The notes beneath the pieces are model-generated. The model was not told where the DNA came from, ran no database searches, and worked only from the letters and a program-made list of their open reading frames with translations. The position numbers were made by a program, and so were the translations under genes. A stretch of DNA of 63,981 nt from a virus (lineage: Duplodnaviria > Caudoviricetes). The stretch is taken from positions 1-63,981 of the IMG/VR virus record IMGVR_UViG_3300014933_000403; one strand, written 5' to 3'. The stretch's first letter is position 1, and the number at the start of each line of letters is the position of its first letter. Of the stretch, positions 16,395 through 24,612 are shown piece after piece.

Positions 16395-16715
16395 ATGGAA
16401 CTCCAAGACTACCTCCACTTCTACCTAGGCTGCCAGGTTGTAACCAATCTAGGCACCGGCACACTACTACAGGTATCAGACCTATCTCTAAATGAACCAC
16501 CATATAAGGTAGGATTCGATTTTGATATACCAGAAGGAGCGGAGGTAGAATGGTGTTCTCCAATCCTAAAGCCTGCTACTTTGTTACGTAACACTCCTGA
16601 TGGGGAAATATGCCTCAACCAAAAAGGTGTTGGTGGCAGGGTGAAATGGATGTGCGATAATGGCTATGATGCATTTGGATTAATAGAAGCAGAACTAGCT
16701 GTCCCTAATGAGTAA
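16395..16715 (+). CDS. Hypothetical phage protein
   Basis: YLHFYLGC...PILKP...DAFGLIE pattern; start refined. Confidence 0.6.
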   Translation: MELQDYLHFYLGCQVVTNLGTGTLLQVSDLSLNEPPYKVGFDFDIPEGAEVEWCSPILKPATLLRNTPDGEICLNQKGVGGRVKWMCDNGYDAFGLIEAELAVPNE

Positions 16716-17190
16716 GAAATTAGTCGATAAAAGAAACAAGCAGATACATAAGATCGTTCTCTGCATGAGAGACCCGACTATAATGCTGTGCCTAGGTGCT
16801 AACCTCATGAAGGTATGGGATGTTTATGTTGGTATCACCAAGGATCGGGTAAAGCACCCAGTTGATATGATGATGCTTGCATGGGCTGCCAGACACCCAT
16901 ATTTCAAAAAGAAAGCCTTCCAGGAGGCGTTAAAAGAAATCGACCCGTACTTTATACCGAATACCGAACACTACGCAAGCATAAACGCCATGTTGGGTAG
17001 GATGAAGAAGAGAAAGTGGGTCGATCGTGCTGTCTATAAGGGATCACAGACATGGTTTATAACAACAGAGGGTAAGCTATTTCTGATAGATGTGACGAAC
17101 GCTATCAGAAAGCTTACCCTCGAACTGTTGGTTAAGGCCAAAACACCCGAAGGGATGAGATGGCGAAAGTTTAAATCAATGGGCGGTTAG
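16708..17190 (+). CDS. Winged-helix (MarR-like) DNA-binding protein
   Basis: SINAMLGRMKKRKWVDR...WFITTEGKLFL wing motif. Confidence 0.55.
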   Translation: MSKKLVDKRNKQIHKIVLCMRDPTIMLCLGANLMKVWDVYVGITKDRVKHPVDMMMLAWAARHPYFKKKAFQEALKEIDPYFIPNTEHYASINAMLGRMKKRKWVDRAVYKGSQTWFITTEGKLFLIDVTNAIRKLTLELLVKAKTPEGMRWRKFKSMGG

Positions 17191-17309
17191 TGACCGGTAC
17201 ACAACATAACACAAAACCGCGAATGAGAATATCTGGCAGGCGATCTCCCAAAGCTGCCTTTTTTCCTGTTCTTTTTGCATGACATTAGATTTAAGGTTGG
17301 TTAATAATG

Positions 17310-17630
17310 TTATTCGTAAACGACATCCATCTCAGCTTTCATCTGTTGGATGATCCTCACCACTCCCCACCTGGTCTTACCCAAATGTTCAGCGATAAGC
17401 CTGGCAGAAAGCTTGCCTTCGGTCCGGAAATAATTCTCCCGAACAAATTGACGGTCTTCCTCACTCCACTCACGGGAGTATTCCTTCCTCCAGCCTTCCT
17501 TACGAGCCATGTTCCAAATCTGATCCTTAGTGATCCCGAACTGGGATACTAAATGTTTGATGTCGGTGTCAGGGAAGAGCAGAGACAACTCGGTCTTCTG
17601 CTCTGGTGATAAAATAGGTGTGTTTGCCAT
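17310..17630 (-). CDS. HTH/Myb-like repeat protein
   Basis: LSPEQKTEL and WSEEDRQFVRENY...IAEHLGKTRWGV. Confidence 0.65.
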   Translation of the reverse strand: MANTPILSPEQKTELSLLFPDTDIKHLVSQFGITKDQIWNMARKEGWRKEYSREWSEEDRQFVRENYFRTEGKLSARLIAEHLGKTRWGVVRIIQQMKAEMDVVYE

Positions 17631-17658
17631 AGATTAAATTTAATGAGGTTTGTTAATA

Positions 17659-17811
17659 TTACCACCACTTGGTTTTGCAAGAGGAGGCAATGCAGGCTCT
17701 CTGACCTTTGTTGATTTTGGAATAATTCCTCTCAGTAGCACAGGAAGAAAGGAAAGCAATCACGATGATGAGTCCAATCACTAGGATTGTGAAGTCTGGT
17801 GTTTTTTTCAT
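17659..17811 (-). CDS. Small lipoprotein
   Basis: MKK, hydrophobic core and lipobox LSSC; two further Cys. Confidence 0.65.
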   Translation of the reverse strand: MKKTPDFTILVIGLIIVIAFLSSCATERNYSKINKGQRACIASSCKTKWW

Positions 17812-17828
17812 GTTGGTTGTTTGTTTGG

Positions 17829-18098
17829 TTAATAATAAACGATGCGTAAGTAGCTGCAATCTTTCCGGTTCATAGCTTTCTGAATCTGTTCTAACTCAGC
17901 CACAACCTCTTCGCCAGGATGCTTGCAGTTAGCCATGGAAATGTTCTCGAGCATTCTAGCTACTGAATAGATATGCTCATGGGTGTCTTCATCATTATCA
18001 GTCCACACTTCTTTCTGTGTTCCGATAAGACATACTGTCTCTGCGGTAATTTGGCTAACATGGATGTCAGCGATTCTCAGGATGTTGTCTAGTTTCAT
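17829..18098 (-). CDS. Hypothetical early protein
   Basis: In the tandem minus-strand operon; directly downstream of hammerhead 1. Confidence 0.65.
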   Translation of the reverse strand: MKLDNILRIADIHVSQITAETVCLIGTQKEVWTDNDEDTHEHIYSVARMLENISMANCKHPGEEVVAELEQIQKAMNRKDCSYLRIVYY

Positions 18099-18111
18099 TT
18101 TAAATAATATT

Positions 18112-18163
18112 GGTTAAGACCCTCCGAAGAGGGTTTCGCATATTCAATGCTCGTCAGTTAACC
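18112..18163 (-). ncRNA. Type I hammerhead ribozyme (HH1)
   Basis: Minus strand reads GGUUAA CUGACGA GCAU-UGAAU-AUGC GAAA CCCUC-UUCG-GAGGG UC UUAACC: full core, three stems, GUC site. Confidence 0.93.
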
Positions 18164-18367
18164 TAATTCAGCAACGGTTTCGTTTATTAATTCAATGACA
18201 ATATTGCATGTCCTATAGTCATTATGAATAAAGAACACCTTCTTAGTATCCCTGCATACAATAGCAACTGTTTTACCTTCTGCATCGTCATCATCTGACT
18301 CCCATAAATCTATATGGGTGTAATTTTGGTCATCGGTGTAATCGTTTCTTACTTCGAAAGTTTCCAT
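18158..18367 (-). CDS. Hypothetical acidic early protein
   Basis: 69 aa; its TAA stop forms part of HH1 stem I. Confidence 0.65.
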   Translation of the reverse strand: METFEVRNDYTDDQNYTHIDLWESDDDDAEGKTVAIVCRDTKKVFFIHNDYRTCNIVIELINETVAELG

Positions 18368-18378
18368 GGTTCGTAGTG

Positions 18379-18684
18379 TTATTGGTTAATAATTGGTTGT
18401 GAGGTTTGTTTATCCCGTGTGTAGGCTGAGATGGTTTCGTATACGCGATTCTCGCAGCCTTGGGGGAGGGTAATTGTGGCAATCCCATTAGAAAAAGAAG
18501 GTTTTACCTTTTCCAGGATCGTATCACCCAATTCTTTTTTAAGGTGGGTGATGAAAATTGCCTGAGCGAATGCCGGATATTTTCCATGATCATTGAGAAC
18601 AATGTGCATGAGAGTCGGTCGGGTGGGGACAACAACCAATGGCTGCTGATCCCAGAATGCGTTGGTGTGGGTGGATGGTTTCAT
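18379..18684 (-). CDS. Hypothetical early protein
   Basis: Operon position; ATGA coupling. Confidence 0.6.
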   Translation of the reverse strand: MKPSTHTNAFWDQQPLVVVPTRPTLMHIVLNDHGKYPAFAQAIFITHLKKELGDTILEKVKPSFSNGIATITLPQGCENRVYETISAYTRDKQTSQPIINQ

Positions 18685-18929
18685 TTGCTAAAGGATTGTG
18701 CAGCGTTAGATAATAAGAGTCCTAAAGCCTCTGCCTGTTCTTTGGTATCACAGTCAGCAACACACAGAACATATTCAGATGACTTACGCAAGTAAACACT
18801 CCAATAAGAATGCTGACCTTCGGCACACATTTCAACGTTGCCTTTGCCGTCATCAAATACAGGGCAGATTTCAACATTATCCCATTGGCGATTAGCGGGT
18901 TGGGGATAGAAATTAAGGTTTGTTTTCAT
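18681..18929 (-). CDS. Hypothetical early protein
   Basis: C...WSVY.R....CVAD.DT..QA pattern; operon position. Confidence 0.65.
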   Translation of the reverse strand: MKTNLNFYPQPANRQWDNVEICPVFDDGKGNVEMCAEGQHSYWSVYLRKSSEYVLCVADCDTKEQAEALGLLLSNAAQSFSK

Positions 18930-18935
18930 GGTTGG

Positions 18936-19121
18936 TTATGGGTTTATAGTTCCGTTAGCAATAAGGTCTTGGGCAGTTCTTCCAAACCAACCTTGCAGTT
19001 GGTAGGCAAGACCCGTGTCATGTAAATACTGCCATGCCTCTGTCTGTAATTCCTCAGATGCATCTTCTCCCGGGCCGAATCCTTCGGCAATGGAGGTAGC
19101 TAAGTAGGGTGTCATTATCAT
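18936..19121 (-). CDS. Conserved-looking small phage protein
   Basis: AWQYLHDTGLAYQLQGWFGRTAQDLI; start refined to follow the structured intergenic element. Confidence 0.7.
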   Translation of the reverse strand: MIMTPYLATSIAEGFGPGEDASEELQTEAWQYLHDTGLAYQLQGWFGRTAQDLIANGTINP

Positions 19122-19124
19122 GTT

Positions 19125-19195
19125 GGTTAATTTTTTTACCGACAATGCCCCGAACCATTTACGATTCGAGGCTGCCAGGCTACAAGGTGTTAACC
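19125..19195 (-). ncRNA. Candidate structured intergenic RNA of unknown class
   Basis: Closed by the same GGUUAA/UUAACC helix as both hammerheads; inner CUGGCA/UGUCGG helix and an 11-bp GCCUCGAAUCG/UGGUUCGGGGC hairpin. Confidence 0.5.
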
Positions 19196-19906
19196 TCACC
19201 TTATCACAAATCCGGTCATATCTTTCTTAGCATCTCCCTTGGCTTTTAAGCCTACCACAACACCTGATGGGTCATAATACCTCAAATCGGTCTCATCGCC
19301 ATTAATTACAGGGAATCCGTTCCAACTAGCAGGAAGTTCATTAAAGACAGCAGCAACATTCCCGCCTACCTTCAATATCTCCAGTGCATCAGCCTCATTA
19401 ACCTCAGAACGGGAGAAGGTAAGCTTGTATGGGGTGTTAAGGTATCTGCGGATATGGTTGGGGTTCTTGGTGTAATCGTAGAACAGGATGTTACGAACAT
19501 ATGGCTGACTCAAGAAATCGTTCCCTGTCTTCCTTTTAAGGATGGCAAGATGGTCAATATCAGATGTGCCATTAAGCCTGATGGCAACCATGGTGTTGGT
19601 CTTCTGTGCATGACGGTGAATAGCTTGTATTTCGATAGCCAACTGAAAGTAGAATTGCTCAATATCTTCAATCCAAAAAAGAGATTTGTTGATCCTGGAC
19701 AACTGCACATTGGAGAAACGACCTCTGCCTGCCGTATACAGACATGACTTGCGGCAGCCTTCAGAAGAGTATGGGCAGAGGTTAAAGCCTCTCAGAGCGG
19801 TCTCTGCCGGTGCCATGTACAGGATAAACGTTTCTAGAGCATTCTTAGCGGTCTTAACATTGGTAGAACCTTTGGAAAGAAGGTTTTTTACAGGTTTGTG
19901 TTGCAT
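19196..19906 (-). CDS. GP88-like Cys-cluster phage protein
   Basis: NLCPYSSEGCRKSCLYTAGRG, IRLNGTSDI, FYDYTK, LTFSRSE, GDETDLR, VGLKAKG; start refined to MQHKP. Confidence 0.7.
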   Translation of the reverse strand: MQHKPVKNLLSKGSTNVKTAKNALETFILYMAPAETALRGFNLCPYSSEGCRKSCLYTAGRGRFSNVQLSRINKSLFWIEDIEQFYFQLAIEIQAIHRHAQKTNTMVAIRLNGTSDIDHLAILKRKTGNDFLSQPYVRNILFYDYTKNPNHIRRYLNTPYKLTFSRSEVNEADALEILKVGGNVAAVFNELPASWNGFPVINGDETDLRYYDPSGVVVGLKAKGDAKKDMTGFVIR

Positions 19907-19921
19907 GGTAGTAGTTTTTAT

Positions 19922-19993
19922 GGTTAAGACGGGACAGAATCCTAGGGGGAGGATGTCTGCCCGTTTCGCGGATTCACCGCTCATCAGTTAACC
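19922..19993 (-). ncRNA. Type I hammerhead ribozyme (HH2)
   Basis: Minus strand reads GGUUAA CUGAUGA GCGG-UGAAU-CCGC GAAA CGGGCAGA...UCUGUCCCG UC UUAACC. Confidence 0.93.
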
Positions 19994-20592
19994 TAGAGCA
20001 TATTCATTGCTAGTTCATAGATATCAAGGTCATTCTCTTCACAGTAATCGAATGCAGCAGCCATACGCTTATTGTAGATGGCAGCCTGTTCAGCAGAATA
20101 CAAGGTTTCATTGTTTCTCACATCTATGTACTGAGTGAAATCGGTATCAGGATGGAAGCCCAAGCCTATGTAGTCAATACACTCTCTGAGGAAAGCAACA
20201 ACCTCAGCCTGTAGTGTATACTTGGCAAGCATATCAGCCTCCTCAGTATCATAAGCCTCTACAGAGTCATAAGACACCCAACAGAAACAATAACCTTGCA
20301 GAGAGTAGAAGGTCTCACCATTGAATTCTACAGAGTAGCATTCCTCATCTGTGGCAATACCATTGGCGTATGACCTGTTATAAAATTTGTTGGTGTCTGC
20401 ATTGTACACGATGGTGTCCGCATCATAGTCAGCTACCTCTTCATTCGATAGCATCTCAGTCACTACCTTCAGACTGTTCTCATGGTTGAAGTAGGGGACA
20501 TCCCAACCATTCCATAGGTCACCAAATGTGATACCTGCAATAGGTTGTCTGAAATGGTCTAGTGCGAAGAATTTAAGTGTGGGTGTGTTCAT
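19993..20592 (-). CDS. Hypothetical acidic early protein, probably two domains
   Basis: WNGWDVPYF N-terminal domain and GLGFHPDTDF..Y...DIYELA C-terminal domain. Confidence 0.7.
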   Translation of the reverse strand: MNTPTLKFFALDHFRQPIAGITFGDLWNGWDVPYFNHENSLKVVTEMLSNEEVADYDADTIVYNADTNKFYNRSYANGIATDEECYSVEFNGETFYSLQGYCFCWVSYDSVEAYDTEEADMLAKYTLQAEVVAFLRECIDYIGLGFHPDTDFTQYIDVRNNETLYSAEQAAIYNKRMAAAFDYCEENDLDIYELAMNML

Positions 20593-20627
20593 GATGTGTT
20601 TGGTTTATTGTTAGTAAATAAATGTGA

Positions 20628-20807
20628 TTAATACCCAAGCCAATGGGCAACCTTTGTGAGTGACCAATCTGTAACGTCAACCCAATTGCTAGCGTCTGTG
20701 CTGCTGCCATCAGGATAGAACTGAGTAGCTACCTCGAATGCTAATATTCTGCCGCAGCATTCTTTGGTGTCGATTCCGTGTTGGTGTAATGCGGTAAGTA
20801 AATCCAT
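20628..20807 (-). CDS. Small hypothetical protein, 59 aa, not in the ORF track
   Basis: MDLLTALHQHGIDTKECCG...WVDVTDWSLTKVAHWLGY; first gene after the putative promoter. Confidence 0.6.
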   Translation of the reverse strand: MDLLTALHQHGIDTKECCGRILAFEVATQFYPDGSSTDASNWVDVTDWSLTKVAHWLGY

Positions 20808-20852
20808 GGTTAAAAGTTTTAATGTGATGCCCTACATCGGGCGATTGTGAGT

Positions 20853-20886
20853 GCAATATACACAAGAAAACAATAAACACAACAAA
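20853..20886 (-). promoter_or_regulatory. Putative promoter of the early operon
   Basis: Minus strand TTTG-N21-GTATATTGC, an imperfect Bacteroidota -33/-7 match in an AT-rich gap. Confidence 0.45.
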
Positions 20887-21092
20887 ACAACAAAGAAATA
20901 TTTTCAGACATGACACAAGTGATTGAAACACATCCAATTGCGGTGTGAAATATTTTTTTCTTTAATGAGTGGTGAATTGTGGCAAATTATAAGCTTTACC
21001 AGTCAGCATAAATTGGCTGTAATGCAGGATCACCGGGCATTTCAGCGGTTTAAAGCCTCTGAGAATCGCACGGATGAGAATGAGTTGGGAGA

Positions 21093-21563
21093 TTATGCAG
21101 CAGTCTTGTTCTGAAGTGCTAGCTGATAGGCATTGATAGCAGCCTCAACCCTATTCCATTTCCATATGGAAGAATCGAATGAGTTGGCATCTGAATAGCC
21201 AAGGAATCGGGCTAATGATTTGCCTTTGAGACCTGTTGCAGCCTTGAATAATGGCAGCCTTGGGCGAGTGTTTAACCTGTGGTGGCAAGTGTATTTGAAG
21301 TATGACTCTAGGGCAGCATTCCTAGCATATGCAACCCTATCCTTCATCACACACCAATCTCTGAAGTCTGCGACCATAGAACGAACATTGGATGGGTAAT
21401 TTGCCCTTATGTACATCTCACCTTTGGAGTTGAGGAATGTCTCAATCCACTTGTATGAGTTGAACTTACTGTACTGTGAGTTGTCCATGTCTATATCTTC
21501 GGGTGATACGACAAAGGTAAATGCATAGCCATATACAGACCAAATTAGCCCTGATGTCAGCAT
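21093..21563 (-). CDS. Hypothetical protein with a possible C-terminal HTH
   Basis: FKAATGLKGKSLARFLGYSDANSF; start uncertain. Confidence 0.5.
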   Translation of the reverse strand: MLTSGLIWSVYGYAFTFVVSPEDIDMDNSQYSKFNSYKWIETFLNSKGEMYIRANYPSNVRSMVADFRDWCVMKDRVAYARNAALESYFKYTCHHRLNTRPRLPLFKAATGLKGKSLARFLGYSDANSFDSSIWKWNRVEAAINAYQLALQNKTAA

Positions 21564-21908
21564 CCTGCACCTGATAGCTATCTCTCACACAGAGCGACCG
21601 CAGCAGCCTGTTGCCACATCAGCTTTGCCTCGTTCGATGGTGGGGTAGGGGAGGGGCTGCGACCTCATGACACGATGTCTACTTAACATAATTATAGTTA
21701 TTAGGCTGATTTAGAGCGAGCGATTCCATGCGTCTGAAGTCAGTCTGGGCGATGGTTTCCGATAGCTGAAAAGCGACCCACCCCATGCGGCAGGAGTGCG
21801 TTTGCCCCTGTACCCTGGCGGCCGGTGGATCAGGTATGAACCCCTACTCACAGATTACAGGGTACCCGGGTCGTAATAGAAGGTACCCTCCCACTGACCA
21901 CTGGGCAT

Positions 21909-21935
21909 AAAAAAGCCCCCGTAAAGGAGGTCTTT
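21909..21935 (-). terminator. Intrinsic terminator
   Basis: Minus-strand GC hairpin followed by TTTTTT, downstream of the 21954 gene. Confidence 0.55.
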
Positions 21936-24261: not shown

Positions 24262-24612
24262 ATGCATAACTACAAAAACGTACAAACAGGGCAGGTGATC
24301 TCTGCCACAGACTTTATGTCTTTAACTAAAAGCCGTAATGAATGGGCTGTATCTGATGAGCCGGTTAACGCAAAGGTCGAAACTATTGTTTCCCCCGCCA
24401 CACCTGCGGCAGAATTTCCTGAGTTCCCAGTTAATGAAGACCTGAACCATGATCAACCTACTATTGATCATGTTGTAACAGAAGATGATTTGAAAGATAA
24501 CCCATCACTGGTTGAAGAAGGTGTGCAGGAAGGAGAAACGATTCAGGTACCGGCTCCGGTTATTGAGGATGGTATTCCTGGTACCGAGCCAGAAGTGGAT
24601 CCCGCAGCATAA
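24262..24612 (+). CDS. Highly acidic hypothetical protein
   Basis: E/D/P-rich; HVVTEDDLKDNPSLVEEGVQEGETIQVP is LysM-like in pattern. Confidence 0.65.
   Translation: MHNYKNVQTGQVISATDFMSLTKSRNEWAVSDEPVNAKVETIVSPATPAAEFPEFPVNEDLNHDQPTIDHVVTEDDLKDNPSLVEEGVQEGETIQVPAPVIEDGIPGTEPEVDPAA

Follow-up and report, generated by a model that had tools for sequence, protein, structure and literature searches.

The 63,981-bp IMG/VR virus record IMGVR_UViG_3300014933_000403 (the window, analyzed over its whole length and estimated to be 89% complete) encodes a DnaB-like helicase, a methyltransferase, a large terminase subunit, virion proteins, and one tRNA. Its minus-strand genes span from a divergent regulatory region at ~24.2 kb down to ~17.1 kb. 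Near the end of this span, a run of small genes (g1–g11) is interrupted by three structured RNA elements. Two of these, HH-A and HH-B, are canonical type I hammerheads that belong to a large phage-borne subfamily, and the third, E3, is unlike a hammerhead. A terminator-like hairpin at 21930–21916 and a 285-nucleotide (nt) gap ahead of g1 (which starts at 20807) suggest that this stretch is its own transcription unit; a sigma-70 scan of the region upstream of g1 gave nothing convincing. The features of the operon are as follows, in the direction of transcription.

20808–21092, minus strand: putative promoter region of the hammerhead operon, ~285 nt, T-rich, with no open reading frame (ORF), containing TATATTGCAC
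20628–20807, minus strand: g1, 59 amino acids, no PHROG or Pfam match
19993–20592, minus strand: g2, 199 amino acids, phrog_9945, function unknown; stop codon TAG at 19995–19993
19922–19993, minus strand: HH-A, 72-nt type I hammerhead, predicted cut C19928/U19927
19907–19927, minus strand: predicted 21-nt leader of g3 after the cut, UUAACCAUAAAAACUACUACC, part of repeat family D2
19196–19906, minus strand: g3, 236 amino acids, Pfam GP88 (118.4 bits), phrog_1617 (E = 8e-66), function unknown
19125–19195, minus strand: E3, 71-nt structured element, not a hammerhead, closed by GGUUAA/UUAACC
18936–19121, minus strand: g4, 61 amino acids, phrog_3908; DUF7417 below the Pfam cut-off
18681–18929, minus strand: g5, 82 amino acids, from the ORF list
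18379–18684, minus strand: g6, 101 amino acids, from the ORF list
18158–18367, minus strand: g7, 69 amino acids; stop codon TAA at 18160–18158, within stem I of HH-B
18112–18163, minus strand: HH-B, 52-nt type I hammerhead, predicted cut C18118/U18117
18099–18117, minus strand: predicted 19-nt leader of g8, UUAACCAAUAUUAUUUAAA, read from the sequence
17829–18098, minus strand: g8, 89 amino acids, from the ORF list
17659–17811, minus strand: g9, 50 amino acids, in frame with the called ORF 17659–17859
17310–17630, minus strand: g10, 106 amino acids, weak match to a D5-like transcriptional regulator PHROG (phrog_323, E = 1.3e-7)
17284–17308, minus strand: ribozyme-free leader cassette, TTATTAACCAA..., whose TTAACC starts 24 nt before ATG 17280
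17063–17121, minus strand: long inverted repeat at the operon end, possibly the operon terminator; it overlaps the 3' part of the plus-strand ORF 16708–17190, and a weak Ref64 match is the same hairpin

HH-A is built in the order GGUUAA, CUGAUGA, GCGG-UGAAU-CCGC, GAA, a long stem III containing a single bulged U, GUC, and UUAACC. HH-B follows the same plan, with GGUUAA, CUGACGA, GCAU-UGAAU-AUGC, GAA, ACCCUC-UUCG-GAGGGU, C, and UUAACC. The catalytic core (C3-U4-G5-A6-N7-G8-A9, G12-A13-A14, and H17) is complete in both (CUGAUGA or CUGACGA, then GAA and GUC), which confirms an earlier sequence-only reading of the locus that had called these two elements hammerheads. The core-adjacent pairs G10.1-C11.1, A15.1-U16.1, and N1.1-N2.1 are present in both, as are an A at position -1 and an A at position +7 next to stem I. 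HH-A and HH-B have stem I (GGUUAA/UUAACC) in common, and the same helix closes E3, as had also been noted from the sequence. They likewise share the UGAAU loop II, which is carried on covarying stems (CGG/CCG versus CAU/AUG). Both hammerheads fold more stably than shuffled sequence (for HH-A, -27.4 kcal/mol and z = -3.84), and when ~40 nt of native sequence is added to either side, all three helices of HH-A and of HH-B are retained in the minimum-energy fold.

The G of the g2 stop codon (TAG, 19995–19993) is the first base of stem I of HH-A, and the g7 stop codon (TAA, 18160–18158) falls within stem I of HH-B. The g3 stop codon (TGA, 19198–19196) abuts E3, so that each of the three elements does start at or overlap the upstream stop, as the sequence-only reading had it. 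Cleavage is predicted between C19928 and U19927 in HH-A and between C18118 and U18117 in HH-B. With the next ATG codons at 19906 and 18098, the predicted leaders are 21 and 19 nt in length, as previously counted. The start of g3 is ATG 19906, and not the in-frame ATG 19984 inside the HH-A core, because GP88 aligns residues 10–235 of the protein to profile positions 3–228. The sequence-only reading had also cited the initiation of Bacteroidota on A-rich leaders without a Shine-Dalgarno (SD) sequence, and the genome is indeed SD-poor, with an SD-like 4-mer at -20 to -5 in 6 of 64 ORFs of at least 100 amino acids; this fits a Bacteroidota-type host without proving one.

The GGTTAA-N20-50-TTAACC pattern, whose gap range covers HH-B only, occurs twice in the window versus 0.17 expected, and 2 of 100 shuffles reach two occurrences. 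The more specific pattern CTGANGAG-N8-20-CGAAAC has three occurrences in the record, namely HH-A, HH-B, and a plus-strand site at 24353. The last (24353–24383, CTGATGAG...CGAAAC) was rejected as a chance match to the core, as it lies inside an ORF and, by eye, can form no stem II. A covariance model (R1) was trained on 134 phage hammerheads. In an unfiltered search of the entire window, R1 gave HH-B 71.9 bits and HH-A 57.5 bits, scores that are partly by construction since both sequences are in the training alignment; the next match had 9.4 bits (E = 9.2). E3 was not matched in this search, and the window holds no third hammerhead.

To place HH-A and HH-B among other phage hammerheads, viral contigs were scanned with a pattern specifying only the core and loop II (CUGANGAG-NNN-UGAAU-NNN-CGAAAC). 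The scan matched at least 119 loci, against fewer than one expected by chance for a pattern of 20 fixed bases (a rough estimate with an assumed collection size). Among the matches listed, 109 of 120 parse as complete hammerheads, meaning that they have a paired stem II, an A-U-closed stem III, H17, and a stem I, none of which is in the pattern; several of the other 11 are hammerheads with one imperfect stem. Copies of the window itself (three loci) were dropped before counting, as were 12 of 156 hammerheads that duplicated another in both sequence and flanks, leaving 144. The alignment (A1) excludes ten more, either with a stem III of over 26 nt or truncated at the end of the locus. In the 134-sequence alignment, 99.4% of cells are paired, versus 63.2% in shuffled alignments and 31–36% with partners slid; the aligned sequences were preselected for pairing, and the 109 of 120 chosen by core sequence alone form all stems. 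Both sides are altered in 699 cells versus 201 in shuffles, 14 of the 16 pairs show two-sided changes, and the covariation score is 0.813 versus 0.157 when shuffled.

The core columns are invariant across this alignment. G10.1-C11.1 is present in all 134 sequences, A15.1-U16.1 in 133, and A-U at the last pair of stem I in 116. Stem I is 6 bp long in all parsed hammerheads except four, which have 5 bp, and it is flanked by an A at -1 (140 of 143), an A at +7 (139 of 143), and an A at +8 (122 of 143). In 137 of 144, stem II has 4 bp and closes a loop of 5 nt; in 41 members of these loci found outside the pattern selection, loop II is mostly U-N-A-A-U-like. These features suggest that the conserved unpaired A(-1), A(+7), and A(+8), along with the UGAAU loop II, may form a tertiary contact. 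Two loci (L144 and L185) have variant hammerheads ending in ...GGUC/UUAACCAA, with a mismatched or interrupted stem III, that the strict parser missed; one of the variants in L144 has a ~75-nt insertion in stem II.

The placement seen in the window recurs across the subfamily. Upstream ORFs were called as the longest ORF of at least 50 codons ending near the ribozyme, and starts as the first downstream ATG opening at least 40 codons. In 90 of the 123 members with an upstream ORF (of 144), the upstream stop begins at -9, -8, -3, +1, or +11 from the core C, and the leader is 18–33 nt in length in 100 of 135 cases. The stops at -9 and -8 draw on the conserved A(-1) and G(1), those at -3 are UAA or UGA ending stem I, those at +1 are the UGA of CUGA, and those at +11 are the UGA of loop II. 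Because these offsets coincide with conserved ribozyme bases, the ribozyme cassette by itself terminates two reading frames. In 75 of 144, HH-A and HH-B among them, the 5' portion of the ribozyme has stops in all three frames.

The same stem I also tends to recur within a locus. Two to four hammerheads, spaced 180–1800 nt apart (plus one 3.8-kb gap), are found in 26 loci. Stem I is identical in 38 of 57 within-locus pairs, whereas stem II is identical in 2 of 57 and stem III in 3 of 57, and the between-locus baseline for stem I is 10.8%. GGUUAA/UUAACC is the commonest stem I (45 of 144 hammerheads, 28 of 104 loci), and its leaders have an SD-like 4-mer in 10 of 38 cases versus 40 of 74 for other stems. 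One locus (L367, a 5.3-kb contig) has four hammerheads flanking single small genes within 1020–2110; one of these has the stem I GGUGAA/UUCACC, which is compensatory to GGUUAA/UUAACC, and two have the variants CCGAUGA and U at 10.1.

In the window, the head of the leader is not confined to ribozymes. The motif TTAACCAA has seven minus-strand sites, six of them between 17135 and 19130. The leaders of the ribozyme-free genes g7, g9, and g11 open with the 11-mer TTATTAACCAA, 21–24 nt before the ATG, and so have the same head as the 3' products of the hammerheads. These 25-nt leaders (18369–18393, 17812–17836, and 17284–17308, all minus strand) form repeat family D3, with 72–80% identity. Solo copies of the leader head also precede ATG codons in four other GGTTAA-type loci (L101, L102, L109, and L192). 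Solo motifs lie on the same strand in 52 cases versus the opposite strand in 36, a weak excess in which several of the solos are hammerheads dropped by the parser or by de-duplication. As a general phage leader motif TTAACCAA was rejected, since it ranked 35th of 420 letter permutations upstream of starts in 0.92 Mb of hammerhead-free loci.

Several points weigh against HH-A and HH-B being active ribozymes with a role at these junctions. Rfam 15 at gathering thresholds reported only the tRNA over the whole window and neither hammerhead. No hammerhead was reported in E-value mode on 16900–21300, 19110–20010, or 19910–20005, and HH-A had no match at all. HH-A deviates from the subfamily in having U rather than A at +8 and in the bulge in stem III. 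In both ribozymes stem I is an open 6-bp helix without an obvious loop for the usual loop-loop contact, and no pseudoknot was found, so that high activity at cellular Mg2+ would depend on the proposed role of the flanking A, AA, and loop II. The subfamily counts are biased, as loop II was fixed by the pattern, paired stems were demanded by the parser, and ORF calls were crude; the loci, sampled from the matches listed, are also not phylogenetically independent. Finally, the positions of the hammerheads are not conserved in the nearest relatives, which makes a required function at these junctions doubtful.

The Rfam result is a failure of the library threshold (clan CL00010, RF03152) and not of the class definition. 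In an 86-nt slice, HH-B gives weak matches to RAGATH-1-hammerhead (19.7 bits; gathering 56.3) and HH9 (16.4 bits; gathering 52), aligning to the core of the former (model positions 26–77) and to the latter. HH-A and HH-B have the same catalytic core and three-way junction as the Rfam hammerheads (Hammerhead_1, Hammerhead_3, Hammerhead_II, HH9, HH10, and RAGATH-1-hammerhead), but unlike members of these families the window sequences score 16–20 bits against gathering thresholds of 52–56, with no match for HH-A. Likewise, in 12 loci with hammerheads found by the parser or R1, Rfam 15 at gathering reported none of 36. Routine annotation thus misses such ribozymes, and the subfamily is in practice invisible to the Rfam library.

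The nonconservation of position is best seen around g3. Its GP88 relatives, 208 from viruses and 508 from metagenomes, have no more than 70% identity to it. By eye, no subfamily hammerhead adjoins g3 in 20 viral loci (20 of 80), and with R1 none adjoins g3 in 100 loci (80 metagenomic and 20 viral), while 2 of the 100 have one 1.3 kb away. The latter are metagenomic (L296 and L297) and have one GGUUAA-type hammerhead 1.3 kb upstream of g3, whose core contains a UGA stop and whose leader is 19 nt long. Hammerheads of other types are found by eye near homologues of these genes in unrelated phages, namely a type II hammerhead just downstream of a g3 homologue (L056) and a type III hammerhead ~60 nt upstream of a g4 homologue (L207). 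No relative of g2 was found. Exact-pattern scans for the 5' half of HH-A, the 5' half of HH-B, and the ends of E3 gave no matches in collections that may lack the records closest to the window, and at the DNA level the operon region has no match among GenBank phages. These observations fit hammerhead cassettes being gained and lost freely, as expected for insulator and passenger roles alike.

Relatives of the helicase, found on uncultured fecal phage contigs, reach no more than 48% identity. The GGTTAA-type pattern matches two genome contigs, one of which is a chromosome of Paraflavitalea (Bacteroidota), and among 151 sampled Bacteroidota genomes R1 finds the subfamily in one, which is the seed itself. 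On the minus strand of the Paraflavitalea locus (L366, 1500–1750), two GGUUAA-type hammerheads lie ~160 nt apart with no long ORF between them. The predicted excised product would be a ~165-nt small RNA with a 3' ribozyme.

On the strength of the complete cores and the covariation of the subfamily, HH-A and HH-B are probably working ribozymes that cut the operon RNA. In the mechanism we propose, each would fold into its three-way junction during minus-strand transcription of the operon from ~20.9 to 17.1 kb, and the 2'-OH of C17 would attack the next phosphate, as in established hammerhead chemistry. This would divide the polycistronic RNA in three: g1-g2 with HH-A at its end, g3-E3-g4-g5-g6-g7 with HH-B at its end, and g8–g11. 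The upstream pieces would end in a compact ribozyme fold with a 2',3'-cyclic phosphate, and the downstream pieces would begin with a 5'-OH and an unstructured, SD-less leader of ~20 nt starting UUAACCA. Each ribozyme may thus be a self-contained intercistronic cassette that provides stop codons, the site of cleavage, and the leader head for the following gene. Incoming frames would be stopped at stem I or within it by UAG or UAA, and further along by the UGA codons of the core and of loop II. Such a cassette would insulate the stability and translation of each segment from those of its neighbors.

The built-in stops bear on a different proposal of the sequence-only reading, by which a ribosome terminating on or in stem I would keep the ribozyme unfolded, so that cleavage would report upstream translation. 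Stops do occur at or in the 5' part of all three window elements, and in the 90 of 123 subfamily members given above. The argument from this overlap is weakened, as a compact self-terminating cassette predicts the same geometry equally well: the overlap may reflect a cassette with built-in stops for two or three frames, in compact phage genomes, rather than a ribosome gate. Hammerheads also usually fold and cut as soon as their 3' strand is synthesized, which here is 52–72 nt past the stop. Gating by ribosomes is improbable on these grounds. It is about equally unlikely that the hammerheads are passenger or selfish cassettes, which come and go with small accessory genes and bring no benefit in expression. 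Their positions do vary among relatives, other hammerhead types adjoin g3 and g4 homologues elsewhere, and the flanking genes differ between clusters, both here and in those described in the available text of PMC3088659. Against this reading stand the intact core and the heavy compensatory covariation, and the conservation of the flanks and the exact position between cistrons indicate that a working ribozyme is under purifying selection.

The recurrence of one stem I within a locus raises another reading, in which the shared helix would let the 5'-OH end of one segment dock on the next ribozyme-bearing 3' end, so that segments are circularized or re-joined. Here the excised segment would be 19927–18118 (g3–g7 plus HH-B), and joining would occur by reversal of the hammerhead reaction or by a host RtcB-type ligase; we give low odds both to such docking and to this route. 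The identity of stem I, so much higher than that of stems II and III, is as this reading predicts, and so is the Paraflavitalea pair of hammerheads flanking a segment without a long ORF. Only the type I topology, moreover, keeps the catalytic bulk on the cyclic-phosphate fragment (PMC3088659, available text). On the other side, the same text reports that spliced or circular products were sought and not found ("data not shown"), stem I differs in 19 of 57 within-locus pairs, and the record (89% complete) has no RtcB or RNA-ligase Pfam domain. Since the UUAACCAA head also precedes three ribozyme-free genes of the window, a constraint on the leader rather than pairing between ribozymes is indicated, and for this window a shared stem I that derives from a leader head used for many genes is favored over interchangeable ends. 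If the ends were nonetheless interchangeable, the result would be exonuclease-resistant or rearranged mRNAs, and a viroid-like cycle of cleavage and ligation acting on the mRNAs of a DNA phage.

E3 consists of GGUUAA, 59 nt, and UUAACC, and ends 3 nt before ATG 19121 of g4. It has the flanks of the subfamily, with A before and AA after the closing helix. Its fold (-25.2 kcal/mol, z = -3.55) has an 11/8-nt internal loop and a ~16-bp hairpin with a GUAAAU loop; the helices are 6, 6, and 9 bp, and the internal loops 11/8 and 1/3 nt. With native flanks, the closing helix is replaced in the minimum-energy fold by a hairpin in which the 5' loop of E3 pairs with the end of g3. As an intrinsic terminator E3 was rejected, there being no U-run after the hairpin on either strand. 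A cmscan of 19110–19210 at E ≤ 10 gave one spurious small RNA match and no other Rfam family, and thus no twister, twister-sister, pistol, hatchet, HDV, or hairpin ribozyme. No homologue was found upstream of 80 g4 relatives (80 of 283) or in a 23-base pattern scan of viral contigs. None was recognized among the A-GGTTAA...TTAACCA frames in all fetched loci, which included a variant hammerhead and one unexamined stretch in L039.

E3 is most likely a structured intercistronic hairpin with a role in translational coupling or regulation. We prefer this assignment because the closing helix buries the 9-nt leader of g4 and touches the g3 stop codon, and in this way E3 could couple translation of g4 to termination of g3. 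Alternatively, E3 could be a protein-dependent processing site. RNase III sites of the T7 early type are about two helical turns of double-stranded RNA with an internal loop, and the two-stem hairpin of E3 with its internal loop resembles these more than the hammerheads do, although the comparison is speculative. An RNase III-type site or the remnant of a replaced ribozyme comes next in our order of preference, and a new ribozyme last. The last possibility, a self-cleaving ribozyme of an undescribed class in the same socket as the hammerheads, is very improbable. In its favor are the stable fold and the A-GGUUAA...UUAACC-AA frame of the subfamily, for which we roughly estimate a chance probability of ~0.03 (~60 positions x 4^-7 x 7 TTAACCAA sites). 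New ribozyme classes have also been found beside hammerheads before, the strategy being that described in the available text of PMC10085705. Against it, with no homologue found there is no covariation and no conserved loop in support, the closing helix is lost in the minimum-energy fold with native flanks, and a plain coupling hairpin or RNase III-type site is a simpler account.

Intercistronic cuts in a polycistronic phage transcript are known from the T7 early mRNA, which the hammerheads of the window resemble in this respect. In T7, RNase III makes these cuts, and every upstream mRNA keeps a 3'-terminal hairpin. That process is protein dependent and gives 5'-phosphate and 3'-OH ends, whereas here cleavage would be RNA-catalyzed, with predicted 5'-OH and 2',3'-cyclic phosphate ends. 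A second parallel is RiboJ, an engineered insulator derived from a satellite-RNA hammerhead with an added hairpin. In both, a hammerhead ahead of a coding sequence trims the upstream context, or is predicted to, and leaves a defined 5' leader; unlike RiboJ, the window hammerheads occur naturally, are of type I, and overlap the stop codon of the gene before them. The type I hammerheads of eukaryotic RNA viruses, as described in the available text, also fill a short intergenic untranslated region and cut a few nucleotides before the start codon, and a role in translation has been proposed for them. Those hammerheads belong to RNA genomes and have no clear loop-loop contacts, whereas the window hammerheads are encoded by a DNA phage, with flanks and a loop II that are conserved.

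Hammerheads clustered around prophage genes were described by Perreault et al. in 2011 (PMC3088659), whose available text proposes that they process long phage transcripts and reports cleavage of three clusters in vitro and of one in E. coli cells. Splicing or circle formation was raised there as a possibility, and such products were not detected. The idea that hammerheads process phage polycistronic RNA without a protein is therefore not new. The operon resembles those clusters in having several hammerheads per transcription unit between varied small phage genes, in the cutting of the transcript into gene- or operon-length mRNAs, and in ligation or circles as the alternative outcome. The clusters tested there came from Clostridium, Azorhizobium, and Agrobacterium, unlike the window phage. 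The main text of PMC3088659 has no mention of stop codons, and we found nothing there (supplements not covered) on a stem I shared across a locus, on a constant stem I of 6 bp between A and AA, or on a constant leader length. More widely, no report was found in the literature, supplements not covered, of the 6-bp stem I and flanks of this subfamily, the stem I shared across a locus, the built-in stops, the narrow range of leader length, or the ribozyme-free leaders. The available text of a 2019 review (PMC6765202) still lists the purpose of such hammerheads as undefined.

The role of phage hammerheads has been open since 2011, and the operon offers a clean test case. It has two ribozymes with an identical stem I, along with built-in controls in a nonribozyme element in the same frame and three ribozyme-free leader heads. 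The features of the subfamily (6-bp stem I with A/AA flanks, built-in stops, 18–33-nt leader, and shared stem I) amount to hypotheses that can be mutated, and could separate roles in insulation, in standardizing leaders, and in ligation through interchangeable ends.

Three other sites were observed in passing. The N-terminus of g9 is hydrophobic and ends ...LSSC, and by eye is signal- or lipobox-like (a lipoprotein signal). Upstream of the operon, a G+C-rich, ORF-free stretch of ~330 nt (21570–21900, minus strand) lies between the hairpin at 21930–21916 and the gene at 21563–21093; it has no Rfam match at gathering and could be a structured RNA. In four other loci (L004, L006, L020, and L024), downstream of the g3 homologue, a terminator-like hairpin is followed by a conserved element of ~45 nt, which is closed by CCUUUG/CAAAGG and has two inner hairpins that covary between the loci.

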